Virus record (IMG/VR): IMGVR_UViG_2534681672_000003
Location: 1-56,022 of that record
Reading direction: 5' to 3' (one strand)
Length of the DNA stretch: 56,022 nt
Origin: a virus
Lineage: Duplodnaviria; Heunggongvirae; Uroviricota; Caudoviricetes
Within the stretch, counting starts at the first letter, position 1; every line of letters starts with the position of its first letter. Positions 5,646 through 31,009 of the stretch are shown here, one piece after another. The notes below the pieces were generated by a model. That model saw only the letters and a list, made by a program, of their open reading frames with translations. It did no database searches and was not told the DNA's origin. The translations under genes were made by a program, and so were the position numbers.

Positions 5646-8600
5646 TCAGCTAATCGTGATGCCTGCAGTGGCTTTCTTCATCACAACAACCAGCAAATCG
5701 CTGATACTTGCTGTGGGATACCAGCCATTTACCAGCCATGCTGACACCGAAAACTCCAGTGTCATGTGACCGTGACCGGCAGGCATATCAATAACGCCAC
5801 TGTAAATCAGCGTATTATCCAGCGCGGTACGGTTATAAATTTCAGCACCGTTTTTCCGCACTATCAGACGGCATGAGGAGTAAATATCAGTATGCTCTCT
5901 CTCATGCTTAGCGCCACTGAATGCCACCGCCGGAATAACAATTTGCCGGTCAAACGGCTGATCGTCATAAACCCTGACGGTAATGGTCCCTGATGGCCAC
6001 CGCTCCGGTGCCCGGGAGTCACGGGGGAAAGCTTTGCCCACTGTTTTAACGAGATCGCCTTCAATCTGGTTCGCGGACAGTTTTCCCAGAACCCGGCAGT
6101 TCTCGTTAATCGTGACGTTGTTGAGCGTCCCGGAGTTCGCATTCACGTTACCGCTGATATCGGCATTTTTCGCCGTCAGCCGCCCGTCCGGTGTCAGGGA
6201 AAATGCCGGAGGATTACCGCCGCTGGTAATGGTGGGAGCCGTCAGATATTTCAGGAACACTTCGTTCATGAATATCTGATTGCCCTGCGCCACAAACATC
6301 GGCGTTTCATTCCCGTTTGCCGGGTCAATAAATGCGATACGGTTAGCGGCAACCAGGAACTGGCTCAGTTTGCCTTCCTCCGTGTCCTCCATGCTGAGGC
6401 CAATACCCGCGACATAATGTTTGCCGTCTTTGGTCTGCTCAATTTTGACAGCCCACATGGCATTCCACTTATCGTTGGCGTCCTTCCACTCTTTCGAAAA
6501 CTCCTCCAGTCTGCTGGCGTTATCCTCCGTCAGCTCGACTTTTTCCAGCAGCTCCTTGCCGAGATGGGATTCGGTTATCTTGCCTTTGAAAAAATCCAGG
6601 TAACCTTCCGCATCATCGCTCACCCGACCGACAGCCTCCACGAATGTCGATTTGCCGACGGTGTTCACACTGCGAACGTAAAAATAATAATCATGGCCCG
6701 GTTTGATATTGATACTGGCGGCTATCCAGTACAGCGCCGTGCCAAGATAACGCGCGCTGGTTTCAACCTGCCTGATATCCGCAATCCGATTTTCCGAGAA
6801 CCAGAACTCAAACTGTACCGTCGGATCATAAACCGCAAGATGCGGCGTGGCGGTTATCTGAAAATAGCCCGGCGTCAGCTCAATCCGCGATGGCGCTGCC
6901 GGTGCGGCAATCCGGAACGATACCGACGCCGGATCGCCCTGCTGCCCCCACGCATTTACCGCCCGGACTGTCAGACTGTAATTTCCCAGAGCCAGCTGCC
7001 TGAAGCGGTATGTGGTTTCCGTCGTCCGGGCCGTGCTGACCAGCCGCTCACTGCCGTCATCCGCTGCCACGGTCAGGCGAAGCATAAAGCTCACGCCCTT
7101 CACCACCTTCGGCGTATCCCAGCGCGCCAGCACCTGGTATTCCCCGCTGTCTGCGGTGACTTCGGCGGTCAGGTGCTGCACCGCTGGCGGCGTGACACCA
7201 TTCACCGTGCCGCTCTGGTCGCCGTCAAAGTGCGCCCCGTTATCCACGATGGCTTCTTTTTCCGGTACATGCTGCACGGCAGTGATGGCATACGTGCCGT
7301 CATCGTTCTCACGGATACTCACACAGCGGAACAGGCGCTGGCGCAGCGTCGGCAGCTTCAGCCCCCACACGCTGTATTCGGCAACGCCGTCAGGAACCCG
7401 ACTCACTTTCACCTTCACGCCGTCGGTGACGGACTGAACCTCCACGCTGACCGGACTCCCCTGCCCGTCAACCAGGCTTATCAGCGTGGTACCGGAGGAT
7501 GGCAGCGTGATTTCACGGTCGAGCGTCAGCGTCCGGGTCTGGCTGTTCACCGCCAGCACGCGCCCGCCAATGCTGATCCCCGCATAGTCATCATCGCAGA
7601 TTTCAATAACATCACCCGGTACATGGCGAAGCCCTTCTGCGCCGACGCTGAAATCCACGGTCTGCGTTTCCAGCAGTTCTGTTTTAATCAGCCACAGCCC
7701 GGCGCGGTGTGCCTGCCCCCGGCTGGTACAGCCAAAGGCATCCATCTTCGTGACGTTACGACCGTAACGGGCAATGGCCTGCGTGTCCTCCACAAGCTCT
7801 GTCGCCGTCTCCCAGCCGTTATCCGGGTCAATCCAGTTCACCTCAACGGCATTATGACGGTCCTTCAGGGCGCTGAAGCTGTAGCGGAACGGCGCGCCAT
7901 CATCCGGCATCACCACATTACTGCGGTTATAGGTCCACACCTTATCCGATGGCCGGTCCTGCACGAACGTCAGCGTCTGCCCGTTCCATACCGGCATACA
8001 GCGCATCGCCGAGCAGAAATCACTGAGCACATCCCACGCCTTGCGCTGCGTGGTCAGCCAGGCATTACAGGTGATGCGCGGCTCCGTGCCACCAAAGCCA
8101 TCCGGCACCGACTGGTCGCAATTCTGGCCGATGACATACAGCGCCCATTTGTCCACATCCGCCGCACCGAGACGCTTCCCCATGCCGTAGCGCGGATGGG
8201 TCAGCATATCCCACAGACACCAGGCCATGTTGTTGCTGTATGCCGGTTTAAACGTCCCGTCCCAGATACCGCTGTATTGCCGCGTCTGCGGGTTATAGTT
8301 CGATGGCACCTGCAGAATACGCCCGCGCAGATGATAATTACGGCTCACCTGCTGGCTGCCGAACTGCTCCGAGTCCACCTGCACGCCGACCAGTGCCGTG
8401 TTCGGGTAGCACTGTTTCACATCGATGATTTCGGTGTATGACGACCAGAGCGTTTTGTTCTGCAGCTGGTCTGTGGTGCTGTCCGGCGTCATCCTGCGCA
8501 TCCGGATATTAAACGGGCGCGGCGGCAGGTTATCCACCACCACTGAGGCCAGATACTGCGAGGTGGTTTTACCCTTAATGGTGATGTCTTTTTCCGTCAC

Positions 8601-17352: not shown

Positions 17353-18143
17353 TTACGCCAGTTGTACGGACACGAACTCATCAGGGTCAGCCAGCAGCAT
17401 CAGCGGTGCTGACTGAATCATGGTGAACTCACGCGCCGGATCGCCGGTGGTCACCCAGTTTTTCGGGTAGCGGGCAGAGGCGTTAATGCCTTCGCGCTGT
17501 GCGTCCGCATCCTGAATGCAGCCATAGGTGCGCAGACCGCGTGCCTGAGTGTTCCCCAGCACCATCGTGTTGTCCGGCAGGAAGTTCTTTTTGACGCCGT
17601 TTTCCACGTACTGTCCGGAATACACGACGATGGCCACATCGCCATACATTCCCTTATAGGACACCGCTTTGCCCAGGTCTTTTACCGCTGTCTCCAGCTC
17701 GGAATGAGAGCCGCGACGGGTATCCAGCTTCTCCCTGACGGCTTTGAAAGAACGGAACAGCGCCCAGCCTTTCGGATCAAACACGATGATATTCACCACA
17801 CCGCTGGCGTTCAGCGCGTAGGCTTCGATATCGTCTGTCGGGTCATACGTGGACTTGTCACGCTTGCTCCACTCCGTGCCGCCGGACTGCGTGATGTTAT
17901 TCGCCTCACTGCGGCCCATATCCACCTCAACCGGATCGAAGGCTTCACCGGTCATGGTGTATTTGCCCTTAAGCACGGCAGAAACTGCCTGCATCTCTTC
18001 GACCTGAGCAATGGCCAGCTCTTCGTCACGCATGTTCTGCATGATGATGCGACGGCGGCGGTAAGTCGGGTCCGCCAGATTCTGCGGATCTTCATCCGGC
18101 AGGCGACGCAGGGTCATCTGCGGATTCACCTCATGCTTCGGCT
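17353..18143 (-). pseudogene. E: major capsid protein E, 3' part (codons ~79-341), separated from its 5' part by the insertion
   Basis: The minus strand reads (K)PKHEVNPQMTLRRLPDEDPQNLADP...EFVSVQLA, collinear with the lambda gpE C-terminus. No start codon or ribosome-binding site is left at the break. Confidence 0.95.
18134..18143. repeat. left copy of the 10-bp direct repeat (att core) TGCTTCGGCT
   Basis: Identical to 29567-29576. It lies exactly where E homology stops. Confidence 0.9.
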
Positions 18144-20086: not shown

Positions 20087-20470
20087 TCAACCAATCAGCT
20101 TATAGCGACCATCCCGTGCATTGCGGCGTACACGCTCAATCTTGAGGCATAGCGCCGCATCTGGCTTTTTTGGGACAGGTACGCGGCAATATTCAGAAGC
20201 GCGAGGAATATTATTTATCCAGTCGATCACTTCACTTAAATACCAGGCCTTACGCCCTTCCGTAACCTGCACACGCTCCGGGAACTCTCCACTAGCCTCA
20301 AGGTTTAGCAGTGTACGACGACTCAGGGTTGTAATTTCCATCACCTGATTCATATCAACAAGGCGCTCGCTTAAACACATTTTGTCAGCGATAGCTTTTA
20401 ATTCCTCTACAGCTGGATTCGGGTACATCATTTCGGCAATTGGCTTAAGGTCATTGTAATCATTCTGCAT
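20087..20470 (-). CDS. AlpA/MerR-superfamily HTH protein with N- and C-terminal extensions
   Basis: 127-aa ORF. The core MEITTLSRRTLLNLEASGEFPERVQVTEGRKAWYLSEVIDWI fits the AlpA-family pattern. A GGGGGA ribosome-binding site is present, and the gene is tightly coupled behind the D-like gene. Confidence 0.6.
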   Translation of the reverse strand: MQNDYNDLKPIAEMMYPNPAVEELKAIADKMCLSERLVDMNQVMEITTLSRRTLLNLEASGEFPERVQVTEGRKAWYLSEVIDWINNIPRASEYCRVPVPKKPDAALCLKIERVRRNARDGRYKLIG

Positions 20471-20481
20471 TGTATCCCCCT

Positions 20482-20823
20482 TTACACACGAGCCAGCGGC
20501 TGAACAGAAATACCTGAGCCAACAAACGCTGCAACCTTTACTGACAGTTCTTTAACAGACTCAGGCCAGTTCAGAGCATCAACATTTAAGACACCTGTCT
20601 TATAGACCTGAGCCTGTGTTTTTTTCGCGGTGTCGATTTGTACAGCGGAAACATAAACCGCTTTACCTACGCTCGAACCATCCCATACCACCAGTGCACC
20701 TGTTGCATCTTCCTGCATCAGTGGCGTAAATGCAGGAATTACCCCTTTATTAGCTGAAAATATCCCCAGCGTAGTCACCAGTGCTTCAGTGCCAGCCATG
20801 AGTTCAGTGTAATGAGTAGCCAT
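20482..20823 (-). CDS. head decoration protein, lambda gpD-like
   Basis: 113-aa ORF. It aligns by eye with gpD at TPLM..LV.WDG..., YK.G..., WPE... and AF.G..IS. Confidence 0.65.
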   Translation of the reverse strand: MATHYTELMAGTEALVTTLGIFSANKGVIPAFTPLMQEDATGALVVWDGSSVGKAVYVSAVQIDTAKKTQAQVYKTGVLNVDALNWPESVKELSVKVAAFVGSGISVQPLARV

Positions 20824-20832
20824 TGCTCCCCC

Positions 20833-21873
20833 TTAGCCAATGCGAACGGTAACAAAACGATTGATGCGGGCCGGTATTGGCTGTGGTGCTGAATGTGTCT
20901 GCACATATTCAATAGCCGGATCACCAGGCACAATATAGTTTTTCGGTGCAAGTTCGGCTTTAGTCAGCCCCATTCGGATTAGCTCCGGATCCTGAATACC
21001 GCCATAGGCGACAATCCCCTGAAGAGCCGTATTGCCAAGCACCATCAAATCAGGATCAAGGAAATGTTTTTCTGTTCCGTCCTCGTCGGTATAACGCCCG
21101 CTGTAAACAACAATCGCAACATCGCCCATATACCCTTTAAAACTCACCGAATCACCAAGGTCTTTAAGGGCCGTTTCCAGTTCGGAATTAGAACCACGAC
21201 GGGTATCCAAAGCCTCTTTTATCGCTCTGAATGAACGGTATTTCTTCCATACATTACCACCCATAATGATGATATTAGTGACGCCCTCACTAAATTCTGC
21301 GTAGCTCTCAATATCATCATTTGGATCAAAAGTTTCTTTATCCTTACCTGACCACTCAGTACCGCCAGACTGAGTGATGATATTTTGTGGTTTTATATTC
21401 CAGTCCAGCTCATAACGTTCAATACCATCGCCCTCAATGATATTTTTCCCCGTTGTGATAGCCTGAACAGCAAGCCATTCAATACGTGCACGAATAGCTT
21501 TAGCCTGATTTACAATCGCCTGTTTAACTTTAATATTACGCGCCCCAAAAGCATTGTATTGCTCAGGTGACACACCAGCAGGGCGCACAGCTAACTTATT
21601 TGGATCAATGCTGCTTTTCGGCTTCATATAACCTGGACGAATTGTTTTTGATTCGTATCCCTCATCTCGTGAAACTTTACTGCCCACCATAGGAGAGCAA
21701 AACGCCGCGATCGGGATATTTGGATCGTCGATCGTATCAAGAATAATGTCTCTCGATTCAAACATTACCGAGCGAGTGAAAAACAAACTGGTAAACAACG
21801 CATTTAATTTTTTTTGTACATCTACAGCATTAACCACCTGTACAAGCTGAGTAGGCGAATATAAATCAACCAT
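20833..21873 (-). CDS. major capsid protein, lambda gpE-like (satellite-encoded)
   Basis: 346 aa from MVDLYSPTQLVQVV. Conserved blocks are QSGGTEWS..DK.T.DP.DDIE.YA and LDTRRGSNSELETA.KDLG..VS.KG..GDVAIVVYSG. AAGAGG lies upstream of the ATG at 21873. Confidence 0.85.
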   Translation of the reverse strand: MVDLYSPTQLVQVVNAVDVQKKLNALFTSLFFTRSVMFESRDIILDTIDDPNIPIAAFCSPMVGSKVSRDEGYESKTIRPGYMKPKSSIDPNKLAVRPAGVSPEQYNAFGARNIKVKQAIVNQAKAIRARIEWLAVQAITTGKNIIEGDGIERYELDWNIKPQNIITQSGGTEWSGKDKETFDPNDDIESYAEFSEGVTNIIIMGGNVWKKYRSFRAIKEALDTRRGSNSELETALKDLGDSVSFKGYMGDVAIVVYSGRYTDEDGTEKHFLDPDLMVLGNTALQGIVAYGGIQDPELIRMGLTKAELAPKNYIVPGDPAIEYVQTHSAPQPIPARINRFVTVRIG

Positions 21874-22069: not shown

Positions 22070-22790
22070 GCCTTTTTGTGCACAGAAAACCCCCAGCTAG
22101 GCTGGGGGTTCCGGAAAGCTTTCAGCTTTGAGCCAGTTATTAAAACCCCTTTTGATTTGTTAAAACACTTTGCGGTCTGGCAACTGCAAGTGTCAAACAA
22201 GAAATCAAAAGGGGGTCCCAATGGGGAACGAAAAGAGCTTAGCGCACACCCGATGGAACTGTAAATATCACATAGTTTTTGCGCCAAAATACCGAAGACA
22301 GGTGTTCTACAGAGAGAAGCGTAGAGCAATAGGCAGTATTTTGAGAAAGCTGTGTGAGTGGAAAAGCGTACGGATTCTGGAAGCTGAATGCTGTGCAGAT
22401 CATATCCATATGCTTGTGGAGATCCCGCCCAAAATGAGCGTATCCGGGTTTATGGGATATCTGAAAGGGAAAAGCAGTCTGATGCTTTACGAGCAGTTTG
22501 GTGATTTGAAATTCAAATACAGGAACAGGGAGTTCTGGTGCAGAGGGTACTACGTCGATACAGTGGGTAAGAACACGGCGAAGATACAGGATTACATAAA
22601 GCACCAGCTTGAAGAGGATAAAATGGGAGAGCAGTTATCGATTCCCTATCCGGGCAGCCCGTTTACGGGCCGTAAGTAACGAAGTTGGATGCAAATGTCA
22701 GATCGTGTGCGCCTGTTAGGGCGCGGCTGGTAAGAGAGCCTTATAGGCGCATTTGAAAAACCTCCGGCTATGCCGGAGGATATTTATTTT
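22070..22790 (+). mobile_element. IS200 (IS200/IS605 family) copy; ends approximate
   Basis: tnpA is flanked by the characteristic hairpins CCCCCAGCTAGGCTGGGGG (left) and CCTCCGGCTATGCCGGAGG (right). The size is about 0.7 kb. Confidence 0.7.
22221..22679 (+). CDS. tnpA: IS200 Y1 (HuH) transposase TnpA
   Basis: MGNEKSLAHTRWNCKYHIVFAPKYRRQVFY...HIHMLVEIPPKMSVSGFMGYLKGKSS... is the typical 152-aa IS200 TnpA. Confidence 0.92.
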   Translation: MGNEKSLAHTRWNCKYHIVFAPKYRRQVFYREKRRAIGSILRKLCEWKSVRILEAECCADHIHMLVEIPPKMSVSGFMGYLKGKSSLMLYEQFGDLKFKYRNREFWCRGYYVDTVGKNTAKIQDYIKHQLEEDKMGEQLSIPYPGSPFTGRK

Positions 22791-22801
22791 ATTGGCAATA
22801 T

Positions 22802-23493: not shown

Positions 23494-23544
23494 AGGCTTT
23501 ATCTCACAGCAGTAAATTAAAATTTTTGCGTTTTAACCCTTCAC

Positions 23545-23767
23545 CTGTTCACCTTTTGATATTTTCTCTTTTAATTCATAATGTTAATGGGTGAACAGTT
23601 TCACAAAAACTATTCACCAACTGTTCACCACTGTTCACCCTTGAAGCTCAATAAACAATCAAAAAGGTGAACAGTGAATAGTTTGGTGAACAGTTCATAA
23701 ATAACTGTTCACCCTATAATATACTGATATAAAAGATATTTATGACAGGGTGAACAGTGGTGAACAG
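23545..23767. repeat. satellite replication origin: iterons GGTGAACAG / CTGTTCACC with AT-rich spacers
   Basis: The perfect 9-mer occurs 5 times forward (23590, 23666, 23685, 23749, 23759) and 4 times inverted (23545, 23621, 23631, 23705), plus degenerate copies. The region sits just after the replication gene. Confidence 0.8.
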
Positions 23768-23780
23768 TTATTCCATAAGT

Positions 23781-25888: not shown

Positions 25889-26113
25889 TTATTCTCCGGT
25901 ATAGCTCTGGTCGTGTATTTTTATAGCTTCATCCAGCTCTTTGATGACAGGATCAAGTAACGTAATTAACGCTCCAGCTAAATTAGCATCCCGTTCATCG
26001 TGTTCCGCATTTGTTGTCCCATCAAGCCAGGTTGATAAGATTTCTCGCATATTTTTGCCACAAACGAGCGCGTTTTCAGCATGTGTCAGCACTTTAAAAT
26101 AAAGATCATTCAT
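25889..26113 (-). CDS. hypothetical protein
   Basis: 74-aa ORF in the leftward operon. No family was recognised. Confidence 0.45.
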   Translation of the reverse strand: MNDLYFKVLTHAENALVCGKNMREILSTWLDGTTNAEHDERDANLAGALITLLDPVIKELDEAIKIHDQSYTGE

Positions 26114-26471
26114 GGCACACCTCCTGACGAATACGGGCGGCGAATATCATCACGTAGCCAGTTGGGAATTGCTGGCGGGCTTCCTGTTCGCTGGCGGCCT
26201 CGATGTGTATTACGCGTGGTTGTGCGGTGCTCAGGGCGATAAAACGCCAGATGAAATTGTTTTCGCATTTCTGAATAAACAGCGTGTTTTCTTCACGCCC
26301 TTTCCAGAAAGCCGCAGTATAGCCCATCTCCTTAACCATCTTGCGGGCATCAACCAGCGTGTCAGCGGCAACATGTACCGTAGTTGCTCCATCTGCCATG
26401 CGGTCGTGGTGTAGTGCCAGAAAGGTGTATATAAATTTAGGGTGAGTTTGGGTATGCTGTGTTCCAGCCAT
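26106..26471 (-). CDS. Icd-like (host cell division inhibitor-like) protein
   Basis: Start set at MAGTQHTQTHPKF with a GAGG ribosome-binding site. FIWRFIALSTAQPRVIHIEAASEQEARQQFPTGYVMIFAARI fits the Icd-like pattern, and a weaker first repeat lies upstream. Confidence 0.55.
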   Translation of the reverse strand: MAGTQHTQTHPKFIYTFLALHHDRMADGATTVHVAADTLVDARKMVKEMGYTAAFWKGREENTLFIQKCENNFIWRFIALSTAQPRVIHIEAASEQEARQQFPTGYVMIFAARIRQEVCHE

Positions 26472-26557
26472 AATCGTTACCTCGTTTAACGGTTTGGTTA
26501 GAAGCCCGGTTAGTGTTCGCGCACTGCCGGGTTTCGTCGTTTTTATGAATCGATCAT

Positions 26558-26660
26558 TGTGAGATACATAGCGACCATGATGTGAGATATACATTATAAT
26601 GTGGTGATATACATTGCAAGTGTTTTTATATCTCACTTTTGTGTATAGTGATATACACAT
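26558..26660. promoter_or_regulatory. divergent control region with repeated operator-like motif GTGA(G/T)ATA(TA)CAT
   Basis: Copies lie at about 26558, 26580, 26600 and 26646, with an inverted copy at 26627. The region sits between the leftward icd-like operon and the rightward RHH-like gene. Confidence 0.6.
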
Positions 26661-26679
26661 AACAAATTGGTGATTAACT

Positions 26680-26982
26680 ATGTCTGTATACAAAAATGCA
26701 AAATCGCAAATGACAACGATCAGGGTTCCCCACGATGTTATGGAGGGCATGGAATCCGTAAAACTGGACGGCGAAAGCAACGCCGGATTCATAGTAACCG
26801 CCATGCGCGGTGAGATCGCCCGCCGCCAGGCAGAAGGAAGCGGAGAAAATCCCCTCGTGTCTTCACTGGATGCCTTAGCTAAGGTCGAACAAATCGGCAT
26901 CAAGGCAGCGGAGGAAATCGGGCAACTCGTAGCCGTCGCTCGTGAAGAACTCCAGCGGCGTAAAGCCAAAGAATCTGAATAA
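26680..26982 (+). CDS. putative ribbon-helix-helix (CopG/Arc-like) regulator
   Basis: TTIRVPHDVMEGMESV...NAGFIVTAMRGEIARR fits a strand-helix-helix layout. The true start may be the internal M at MTTIRVP. Confidence 0.45.
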   Translation: MSVYKNAKSQMTTIRVPHDVMEGMESVKLDGESNAGFIVTAMRGEIARRQAEGSGENPLVSSLDALAKVEQIGIKAAEEIGQLVAVAREELQRRKAKESE

Positions 26983-27332
26983 TTACTATCAGCGCCGTGA
27001 TGTGAGTAACTACGGCGCATTGCTATGTAAATACTGGCAATAAACAGAAAAGGTAGTTCTACTCCGAATAATTTTATCTGACACTACTCCTGAACTAACA
27101 TGCGCTTATCTTACAGGATATAAATATAGATCCATAAAATCACGATTAAATAAAGCCGCTCCAAACATAAACCACACCCAACGCTTAACAAGATAGCAAC
27201 AAACAGATAAATAACTTGCAGAAATATTTATCGCAAGGATTATCATTATTAATTACAAATCACTTTACCAAGTCATTCCCCTCTCTTATCATAAAGAGAA
27301 AGTAATAAATAAGTTAAGGGAGTTAGAATACT

Positions 27333-27869
27333 ATGAATCTAAAAAAAATAGCCACAAACATAAAAAACAAGATAATAGAAACATTCAATAAACTTATATT
27401 AGAGGCATCTAAAACCCCCACACAAGATGAAATTAAAATACTTGAGAGAAGAAGTAAAAAGTTTAATTACTCCTTTTTCTCATACGCAGTCACAGGAGCC
27501 ATAATGGTTTTTTGCTCTCAACCATTAATAAAATACGCAAACCCAATGCTTATTTTATTGAGTGGTCTGTTACTGTCTATCATCATTATCCTTCTCAGAA
27601 TGATTTATATTTCACAAGCGAATGCATCATGGACAACCAAAAAACGTTCACATGTACTAGTTCATTTTCTTTCTGCATGTTTCATAGCGTCAACATTGAC
27701 GTTGTTATATCAGGCTTACGATAATAACATCACACACAAATTGTACTGTAAAAATATACAACAACTTATTGAAAAAAGGATAGAAACAGAAAAAAATATC
27801 AGCATATTCAGTGGGATGCAATGCACCCCGGCATATGATTACTCTTTATTTGGATTTAATCTCTTATAA
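27333..27869 (+). CDS. cargo membrane protein (about 3 predicted TM helices)
   Basis: 178-aa ORF in a very AT-rich block. The hydrophobic stretches are AVTGAIMVFCSQPL, LILLSGLLLSIIIILL and LVHFLSACFIASTLTLL. Confidence 0.55.
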   Translation: MNLKKIATNIKNKIIETFNKLILEASKTPTQDEIKILERRSKKFNYSFFSYAVTGAIMVFCSQPLIKYANPMLILLSGLLLSIIIILLRMIYISQANASWTTKKRSHVLVHFLSACFIASTLTLLYQAYDNNITHKLYCKNIQQLIEKRIETEKNISIFSGMQCTPAYDYSLFGFNLL

Positions 27870-27938
27870 AGAATGTTATTACTGATTTGAGTGCAAATTC
27901 TCAAATCAGTAATTCATAATATTTTATTCTGAGATAAT

Positions 27939-29566: not shown

Positions 29567-29576
29567 TGCTTCGGCT
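29567..29576. repeat. right copy of the 10-bp direct repeat (att core) TGCTTCGGCT
   Basis: Identical to 18134-18143. E homology resumes here. Confidence 0.9.
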
Positions 29577-30863: not shown

Positions 30864-31009
30864 TTGCCATCCACCTTATGGCTGCCGCTGTAAATCAGCG
30901 TGATTTCCACGCCCTGTTTCTCCAGCGCAGCACCGTTTGCCATCCACCTTATGGCTGCCGCTGTAAATCAGCGTGATTTCCACGCCCTGTTTCTCCAGCG
31001 CAGCACCGT
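30864..31009. repeat. perfect tandem duplication, 2 x 73 bp, inside gene C
   Basis: TTGCCATCCACCTTATGGCTGCCGCTGTAAATCAGCGTGATTTCCACGCCCTGTTTCTCCAGCGCAGCACCGT occurs at 30864-30936 and again at 30937-31009. Confidence 0.95.

Follow-up and report, generated by a model that had tools for sequence, protein, structure and literature searches.

The immI region of phage P22 combines the small ribbon-helix-helix (RHH) repressors Mnt and Arc with the sar antisense RNA. In immI of phages P1 and P7, arranged as c4 RNA-icd-ant, an antisense RNA blocks translation of the leader gene icd (in P1) and so limits expression further downstream; C4 and CI RNAs act in trans on sites within one transcript, from which they are also processed. 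The Stl proteins of Gram-positive satellites are helix-turn-helix repressors that are lifted by helper proteins. To Gram-negative PICIs no repressor at all has been assigned: a 2018 account (PMC6092414) leaves their global repressor unclear and calls the contrast with Gram-positive PICIs a mystery, and the literature thus agrees with the statement, made in an earlier sequence-only reading of this DNA, that enterobacterial PICIs are described without a dedicated repressor. Published data on the prototype EcCICFT073 show that AlpA is required for its induction and that AlpA overexpression alone triggers excision and replication. For elements embedded in their helper, PMC10111431, which also covers P4, proposes read-in of helper late transcription as an induction route.

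The stretch of DNA analysed here, referred to as the window, comprises 56,022 nucleotides of an IMG/VR virus record (IMGVR_UViG_2534681672_000003) and contains an 11.4-kb satellite within the lambda-E-like major capsid gene of a DLP12-like E. coli prophage. The 10-bp core AGCCGAAGCA is found at both ends of the satellite (18134-18143 and 29567-29576), and the capsid gene is interrupted after codons GYVKPKH, between GYVKPKH and EVNPQ. Minus-strand gene order starts with int and alpA and is followed by two plus-strand genes; it continues with the Icd-like gene, orf74, DUF4222, a D5/P4-type primase, a hypothetical gene, SSB and an IS200 insertion, and ends with an E-like capsid gene and a D-like decoration gene that belong to the satellite itself, then a helix-turn-helix gene and, last, a terS pseudogene. 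The co-oriented int, alpA and primase, together with a prophage late gene that is split without being replaced, make this a helper-embedded PICI (HE-PICI, E:Phage_cap_E site). A type with this layout is already published as 11capE in PMC10111431 (Tommasini, Mageeney and Williams 2023), where int-alpA, the primase, the element’s own E-like capsid/decoration genes and insertion after GYVKPKH into a lambdoid prophage’s lambda-E-like capsid gene all recur, so the element as a whole is known. That paper describes the named genes as unidirectional, takes counter-oriented genes to be hypothetical and, in the parts searched, mentions no repressor, operator or antisense RNA at the position considered here. 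The 901-bp stretch that spans this position (26100-27000) is 100% identical to strain SCU-102 (NZ_CP051753.1) and megablast matches it to 815 of the 5426 complete E. coli genomes searched.

The spacer between the leftward Icd-like gene and a rightward 100-aa ORF is 208 bp long (26472-26679) and carries a repeated site. With at most one mismatch, the 12-mer GTGAKATAYAYA occurs six times in the 56-kb window, where 1.0 match would be expected by chance, and five of the six lie at 26559, 26582, 26604, 26625-26636 (minus strand) and 26648. Of the exact 10-mer core GTGAKATAYA the window contains five copies, all within 26559-26659, four of them on the plus strand and one inverted, with start-to-start distances of about 22 bp (22-23). 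The sites, the promoters predicted around them and the first gene of the leftward operon are as follows.

26106-26471, minus strand: Icd-like gene, 121 aa, with a C-terminal Icd-like domain, first in the leftward operon
26483-26480 and 26471-26469, minus strand: Shine-Dalgarno GAGG and ATG of the Icd-like gene
26559-26570, plus strand: site O0, GTGAGATACATA, an extra distal copy
26582-26593, plus strand: site O1, GTGAGATATACA, overlapping the leftward -10 at its 3' end, together with the start predicted for that promoter
26604-26615, plus strand: site O2, GTGATATACATT, within the leftward promoter spacer and reaching its -35
26625-26636, minus strand: site O3, GTGAGATATAAA, within the rightward promoter spacer
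26648-26659, plus strand: site O4, GTGATATACACA, overlapping the 3' end of the rightward -10 and covering the predicted start
26591-26619, minus strand: predicted leftward sigma-70 promoter, called by conservation, with -35 TTGCAA (26619-26614), a 17-nt spacer and -10 TAATGT (26596-26591)
26644-26649, plus strand: -10 TATAGT of the predicted promoter of the 100-aa gene, whose -35 is weak

A consensus promoter scan of the spacer found none, the leftward promoter included, so these promoter calls rest on conservation. In an alignment of 11 loci with a mean column identity of 63%, the leftward -35 TT and -10 TA are invariant and exactly 17 nt apart, and the -35 G and -10 T6 are kept in at least 90% of loci. 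The rightward -10 has counterparts at the matching position in related loci, reading TATAAT, TATACT, TATATT, TATTGT or TATCGT, and those of O1, O2, O3 and O4 lie at about -100, -76, -54 and -31 from the start codon. Given these conserved positions, O1/O2 fall on the leftward promoter and O3/O4 on the rightward one, at its spacer and start; the repeated sites overlap core elements of both predicted promoters, as expected of repressor operators. The Icd-like protein matches NF033153 (E 4.8e-22) and phrog_1743, with no PADLOC match, and its gene overlaps the next one (25889-26113), which is followed by DUF4222 and the primase. Its start codon (26471-26469) lies one base to the left of the start coordinate previously given (26472). 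What the sequence-only reading observed in this region is otherwise confirmed: it had named the neighbours as icd-like, orf74, DUF4222-like and a helicase (here identified as a D5/P4-type primase-helicase), had counted at least five repeat copies in both orientations in a spacer of about 200 bp, and had placed divergent promoters beneath them, whose predicted positions are invariant in the 11 loci. It had also made the idea of a switch depend on conservation of the repeats in related elements, and the sites are indeed kept at matching positions in about 20 satellites, EcCICFT073 among them.

These satellites were collected from E. coli (elements L002-L007 and the prototype EcCICFT073) and from Xenorhabdus, Photorhabdus, Enterobacter, Erwinia, Serratia, Phytobacter, Klebsiella and Cronobacter, with one further source being a contig deposited as Martelella alba (L017). 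The position of the gene is constant in the collected loci, between alpA and the replication operon and divergent from the latter. The sequence-only reading had expected a repressor-operator switch to set this element apart. That expectation fails: the module is found also in EcCICFT073, in cf-PICI-like elements and across Enterobacterales, and is therefore a general if overlooked arrangement and not a distinguishing mark. In EcCICFT073 the YlcI/YnfO protein is a 59-aa form (L021 10474-10653; NC_004431.1 1380473-1380652), annotated only as a family protein, in which the RHH domain is joined straight to an RRKAKEQE tail and the C-terminal helix is missing; the module there has GGTGTGGCCCAC sites and a corresponding antisense-RNA region, at about 1380772-1380853 of that record.

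The rightward gene and its parts are as follows.

26680-26982, plus strand: YlcI/YnfO-family gene, 100 aa
26701-26835: predicted RHH DNA-binding domain, residues ~8-52
26851-26976: long C-terminal helix, residues 58-99
26993-27019: hairpin GCGCCGT...ACGGCGC just 3' of the stop codon of the 100-aa gene, with no clear U tract

The protein matches NCBIfam NF041551 (YlcI/YnfO family, N-terminal domain) over residues 8-49 at 70.5 bits, against a cut-off of 30; an identical protein bears the family name in RefSeq, and PHROGs places it in phrog_6522, with function there unknown, while no Pfam family reaches its threshold. It has 249 detectable homologues in Enterobacterales, and a search of 1.8 billion cluster representatives returned just 72 clusters, many of which are 55-65-aa forms consisting of the N-terminal domain alone. 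No match was found by tblastn in 50,697 phage records, nor by PADLOC. The hairpin 3' of the gene has a folding z of only -1.8 on either strand, and a counterpart lies 3' of the EcCICFT073 homologue as well.

A ribbon-helix-helix layout had been proposed for this protein, and its predicted structure agrees with that. The AF2 model (mean pLDDT 80.6) shows residues 1-17 extended and helices at 18-27, 34-52 and 58-99, which gives the RHH part (pLDDT 77-88) a strand-helix-helix topology within about 45 residues, and the model resembles solved RHH proteins. Sequence profiles do not place it in a curated RHH family: no Pfam RHH family reaches threshold for the protein, and 63 family members yield only single weak matches (E 5e-4 to 5e-3) to CopG_antitoxin, RHH_1, TacA1, RHH_5, PSK_trans_fac and CB_ParB_C. 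When the monomer model was compared with the PDB by Foldseek, nothing significant emerged; PDB sequences searched by profile yielded nothing for the N-terminal domain; and hhalign probabilities were weak for Arc (5.8%) and Mnt (0.4%). Judged by the model, an RHH fold is likely. The profile search did relate the C-terminal region weakly (E 0.008) to the helix-hairpin-helix domain of Hef (1x2i), a reading that was dropped because AF2 shows one continuous helix. Across specificity types, conservation is far higher in this region (SSLDAL..VE.IG.K..EEI) than in the DNA-binding part; the helix may serve oligomerisation, a second DNA contact or as the target of an inducer.

Binding of the protein to the repeats is suggested by the way in which the two vary together. 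The core of the site changes with residues 11-14, which lie in the predicted DNA-reading beta-strand, and at least nine specificity groups can be told apart, including those below.

Residues MTTI: site core GTGAKATAYA
Residues LTTV or LFTV: site core GGTGTGTTTCA
Residues QLNA or QINA: site core GTGAATNCC
Residues xKNx: site core GGTGTGTAT
Residues SLTA: site core GGTGTAAG, identical in Enterobacter and Klebsiella
Residues QISI: site core TGTGATT
Residues ALKA: site core GGTGTGGCCCA
Residues ALAA: site core GGTGTAAACA

Two proteins, of L004 (QLNAR) and L018 (QINAR), share GTGAATNCC sites, the latter being only 43% identical to the query. One prediction failed, in that the proteins with ALAAR (L023) and ALKAR (EcCICFT073) differ in their sites, and site orientation also varies between groups. 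The co-variation of sites with predicted DNA-reading residues is partly confounded by shared descent. Comparison of the window with L005 adds a second line of evidence: identity is 100% at 26450-26500, drops to 50-72% at 26500-26800 and returns to 90-98% at 26800-26950, a pattern that points to the exchange of operators and DNA-binding domain as one cassette. Together, the co-variation and the swapped cassette support the binding that the sequence-only reading had predicted, and the 100-aa protein would accordingly be expected to recognise these repeats.

The left third of the spacer, by contrast with the repeats, had drawn no comment in that reading. It probably encodes a cis-antisense RNA related to SymR.

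26430-26458, plus strand: putative antisense RNA promoter, with -35 TATAAA (26430-26435), a 17-nt spacer and -10 TATGCT (26453-26458)
26466-26545, plus strand: predicted SymR-like cis-antisense RNA, ~80 nt

The putative promoter sits inside codons 5-14 of the Icd-like gene, and its -10 keeps T1, A2 and T6 without exception across 11 diverged loci. The start predicted from it, at about 26465/6, coincides with the beginning of a match to the Rfam symR family (RF01809), which covers the full-length model at 26466-26538 on the plus strand with 35.3 bits (E 4.4e-5 in a 451-nt search, 1.2e-3 in 12 kb), a score that does not reach the gathering score of 61 needed for membership. In the other direction, a covariance model built from 14 satellite loci (R1) detects the annotated K-12 symR at 26.3 bits (E 4.7e-4), its sole outside match below E 0.1. 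The geometry is also that of SymR, since the RNA start at 26466 lies 3 nt behind the Icd-like ATG (26471-26469), exactly as K-12 symR starts at 5836 behind the symE ATG (5841-5839). Two stem-loops are predicted: stem-loop 1 holds the anti-start codon CAU and, in its loop, the anti-Shine-Dalgarno CCUC, while stem-loop 2 forms a G+C-rich terminator with a U tract behind it. Aligned over 11 loci, the structure has 99% of its cells paired and compensatory change at seven pairs, a result that none of 500 shuffles equalled. Some of the conserved pairs, several in number, read G-U on the plus strand and would be C-A on the minus strand, and folding is likewise much stronger for the plus strand (-33.8 kcal/mol, z -6.4) than for the minus-strand leader (z -2.0). 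The Rfam families C4 and isrK, which have been reported in some PICIs, have no match in this element. The RNA would be expected to be expressed.

By analogy, the closest known counterpart of this module is P22 immI. In both, a small RHH repressor (predicted here) is divergent from the operon that it controls, operators lie over close opposing promoters, and a short cis-antisense RNA lies across the ribosome-binding site of one of that operon’s genes; like Mnt, the protein would join an N-terminal RHH domain to a C-terminal helical domain, which in Mnt serves oligomerisation, and a motif around the beta-strand, (F/I)R(W/M/V)P x (E/D)V, is common to both. However, hhalign reveals no significant sequence relationship of the 100-aa protein to Arc or Mnt, P22 has single operators where the satellite has four to five sites about 22 bp apart, the operon controlled in P22 is that of an antirepressor and not one for replication and packaging, and the RNA resembles SymR and not sar. 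The Stl (Rpr) and str arrangement of SaPIs and Gram-positive PICIs shares the divergent position between int/excision genes and the replication-packaging operon (PMC6092414), yet the satellite protein is RHH by prediction and EcCICFT073 is induced by AlpA alone. With symE-symR the module has in common the RNA start 3 nt behind the target start codon, the two stem-loops with CAU in stem-loop 1 and the reciprocal detection by covariance models; it differs in that the target is the leader of the Icd-like operon and not SymE, that the Rfam score stays under the gathering threshold, that it is carried by a satellite, and that an RHH-controlled promoter is predicted upstream. The Icd-like gene at the head of the operon recalls P1/P7 immI, but unlike the RNAs of that system and P4 CI, the satellite RNA is predicted to be a true cis-antisense transcript.

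Taken together, these features make it fairly likely that an autoregulated RHH repressor and an antisense RNA form a two-layer silencing module for the main operon of the satellite. In the layer of the repressor, the protein would be made from the weak rightward promoter and would occupy four to five sites, with about two helical turns from each to the next. Bound at O1/O2 it would sit on the leftward promoter, over its spacer, -10 and start; this promoter is predicted to drive the operon for Icd-like, DUF4222, primase, SSB and capsid proteins. Bound at O3/O4 it would cover the spacer and start of its own promoter. From the position of the sites over both promoters, the protein would both shut off the replication/packaging operon and limit its own synthesis. 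In the layer of the RNA, the ~80-nt transcript, fully complementary to the start codon, ribosome-binding site and leader of the Icd-like gene, should block translation of leaky leftward transcripts, and because the operon genes overlap it should also lower expression of the genes downstream. We infer from this arrangement that the sign of regulation is repression, and likewise that AlpA or the helper would override the block. Since EcCICFT073, with the 59-aa form, is induced by AlpA alone, the protein is not an insurmountable master lock. The expectation in the sequence-only reading that a helper signal acts here finds no support, and the 100-aa protein could at most be a candidate for helper sensing.

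A wider proposition can be put forward only tentatively: that Gram-negative PICIs, including EcCICFT073 and the cf-PICI-like and helper-embedded types, possess a dedicated RHH master-repressor immunity module with a swapped strand/operator cassette, a second layer of SymR-derived RNA and an override by AlpA or helper. Were this so, the satellites would fall into nine or more immunity types, in analogy to heteroimmune lambdoid phages; the lock would give way to AlpA or to late transcription of the helper that enters the embedded satellite; and the conserved helix at the C-terminus would provide a surface for oligomerisation or for binding an inducer.

Could the repeats serve something other than repression? 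With a regular spacing of ~22 bp and mostly direct copies, they look like plasmid iterons, and the spacer could then be an origin and the repeats targets of the primase or an initiator. We give this almost no weight, since at least 10 copies of GGTGAACAGT / ACTGTTCACC lie elsewhere, just downstream of the primase gene (23540-23775), and since repeats that serve replication should follow their initiator and sit at an origin position, which those of the spacer do not: the L005-L007 primase is identical over residues 176-606 and has matching iterons, but the spacer repeats are different. The window and L005 thus both have at least nine GGTGAACAG iterons beside the primase while their spacer repeats differ, and the spacer architecture is common to three unrelated replicase types (D5_N, DUF927 and AAA_25). 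The repeats might also be AlpA sites to which the 100-aa protein is unrelated, given that AlpA is both required and sufficient for EcCICFT073 induction and so must act somewhere on the operon. This is very unlikely, because L002 and L004 have an identical spacer and 101-aa protein but barely related AlpA proteins (46% over 26 residues), and the block of recombination in which the repeats change stops within the 100-aa gene, short of alpA. The primase and AlpA comparisons in effect exclude both readings.

Other explanations accept that the protein binds the repeats and differ on what the binding does. One is a local toxin-control or addiction cassette that keeps the Icd-like division inhibitor off and does not govern the life cycle, to which we assign a small but real probability. 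The genes that follow the Icd-like gene overlap and run into the primase, however, no other conserved promoter was seen between the two, and related loci have no conserved toxin partner beside the 100-aa gene. Alternatively, the protein could be an activator or dual regulator of the leftward operon: the best leftward -10 match, TATAAT (26598-26593), has a 15-nt spacer, whereas the conserved 17-nt frame gives the weaker TAATGT, so that an activator could be needed. That is unlikely, as both promoters have their sites on the -10, start and spacer, where a repressor would sit, and not upstream of the -35. Silencing by repressor and antisense RNA therefore remains the preferred reading.

Devices of this type are classical; what is new is the protein family, the setting and the combination with a SymR-like RNA. 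In the literature searched, in which subscription journals are thinly covered, no paper was found that gives YlcI/YnfO proteins a function or that reports, at this position, a repressor, an operator or an antisense RNA. The module offers a concrete, testable candidate for the repressor, present in the model element EcCICFT073. It also provides the uncharacterised YlcI/YnfO (DUF3950) family with a first hypothesis on its function, and it would extend SymR-type antisense control from symE to satellite operons. That specificity can be swapped as a cassette suggests competition or immunity between satellites, which, if so, would be relevant to understanding and engineering their mobilisation. The family may be regulatory in lambdoid prophages too. 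In K-12, YlcI (64 aa; L022 4252-4446) has the pattern R-F-P...G-S-x-x-F, matching the strand-helix-helix sequence pattern, and ylcI is divergent from nohD (small terminase subunit) across the DLP12 cos region.

Several further features of the satellite and its helper deserve mention. The GGTGAACAGT / ACTGTTCACC array at 23540-23775, which we take to be the P4-type TGTTCACC repeat, occurs in both orientations, flanks an AT-rich stretch and is also present in L005-L007; this is probably the satellite origin. A predicted membrane protein of 178 aa (27333-27869), possibly cargo, is encoded in the interval that separates the 100-aa gene from alpA and has no family match in Pfam, PHROGs, NCBIfam or PADLOC. 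Its gene is missing from related loci, for which reason a toxin-antitoxin pair with the 100-aa gene was rejected. A strong hairpin after it (27880-27915; z -5.4 on the plus strand, -3.95 on the minus strand) could terminate both this gene and alpA, and simple read-through from alpA is consequently not assured. The satellite’s E-like capsid gene lies at ~20833-21873 and its D-like decoration gene at 20482-20823; directly downstream of the latter, and upstream of the terS pseudogene, is a second helix-turn-helix or AlpA-like gene (127 aa, 20087-20470). Between the SSB and capsid genes lies an IS200C copy (22088-22800) with tnpA at 22170-22679 on the plus strand, whose 5' RNA element accounts for an Rfam STnc490 match of 144.6 bits (22088-22211). 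In the helper, the S49 peptidase / gpC gene, annotated as intact in SCU-102, contains a perfect 73-bp tandem duplication (30864-31009; 2.0 copies, 100% match). As 73 bp is not a multiple of three, the gene should be frameshifted, and the helper prophage may be defective for head maturation.
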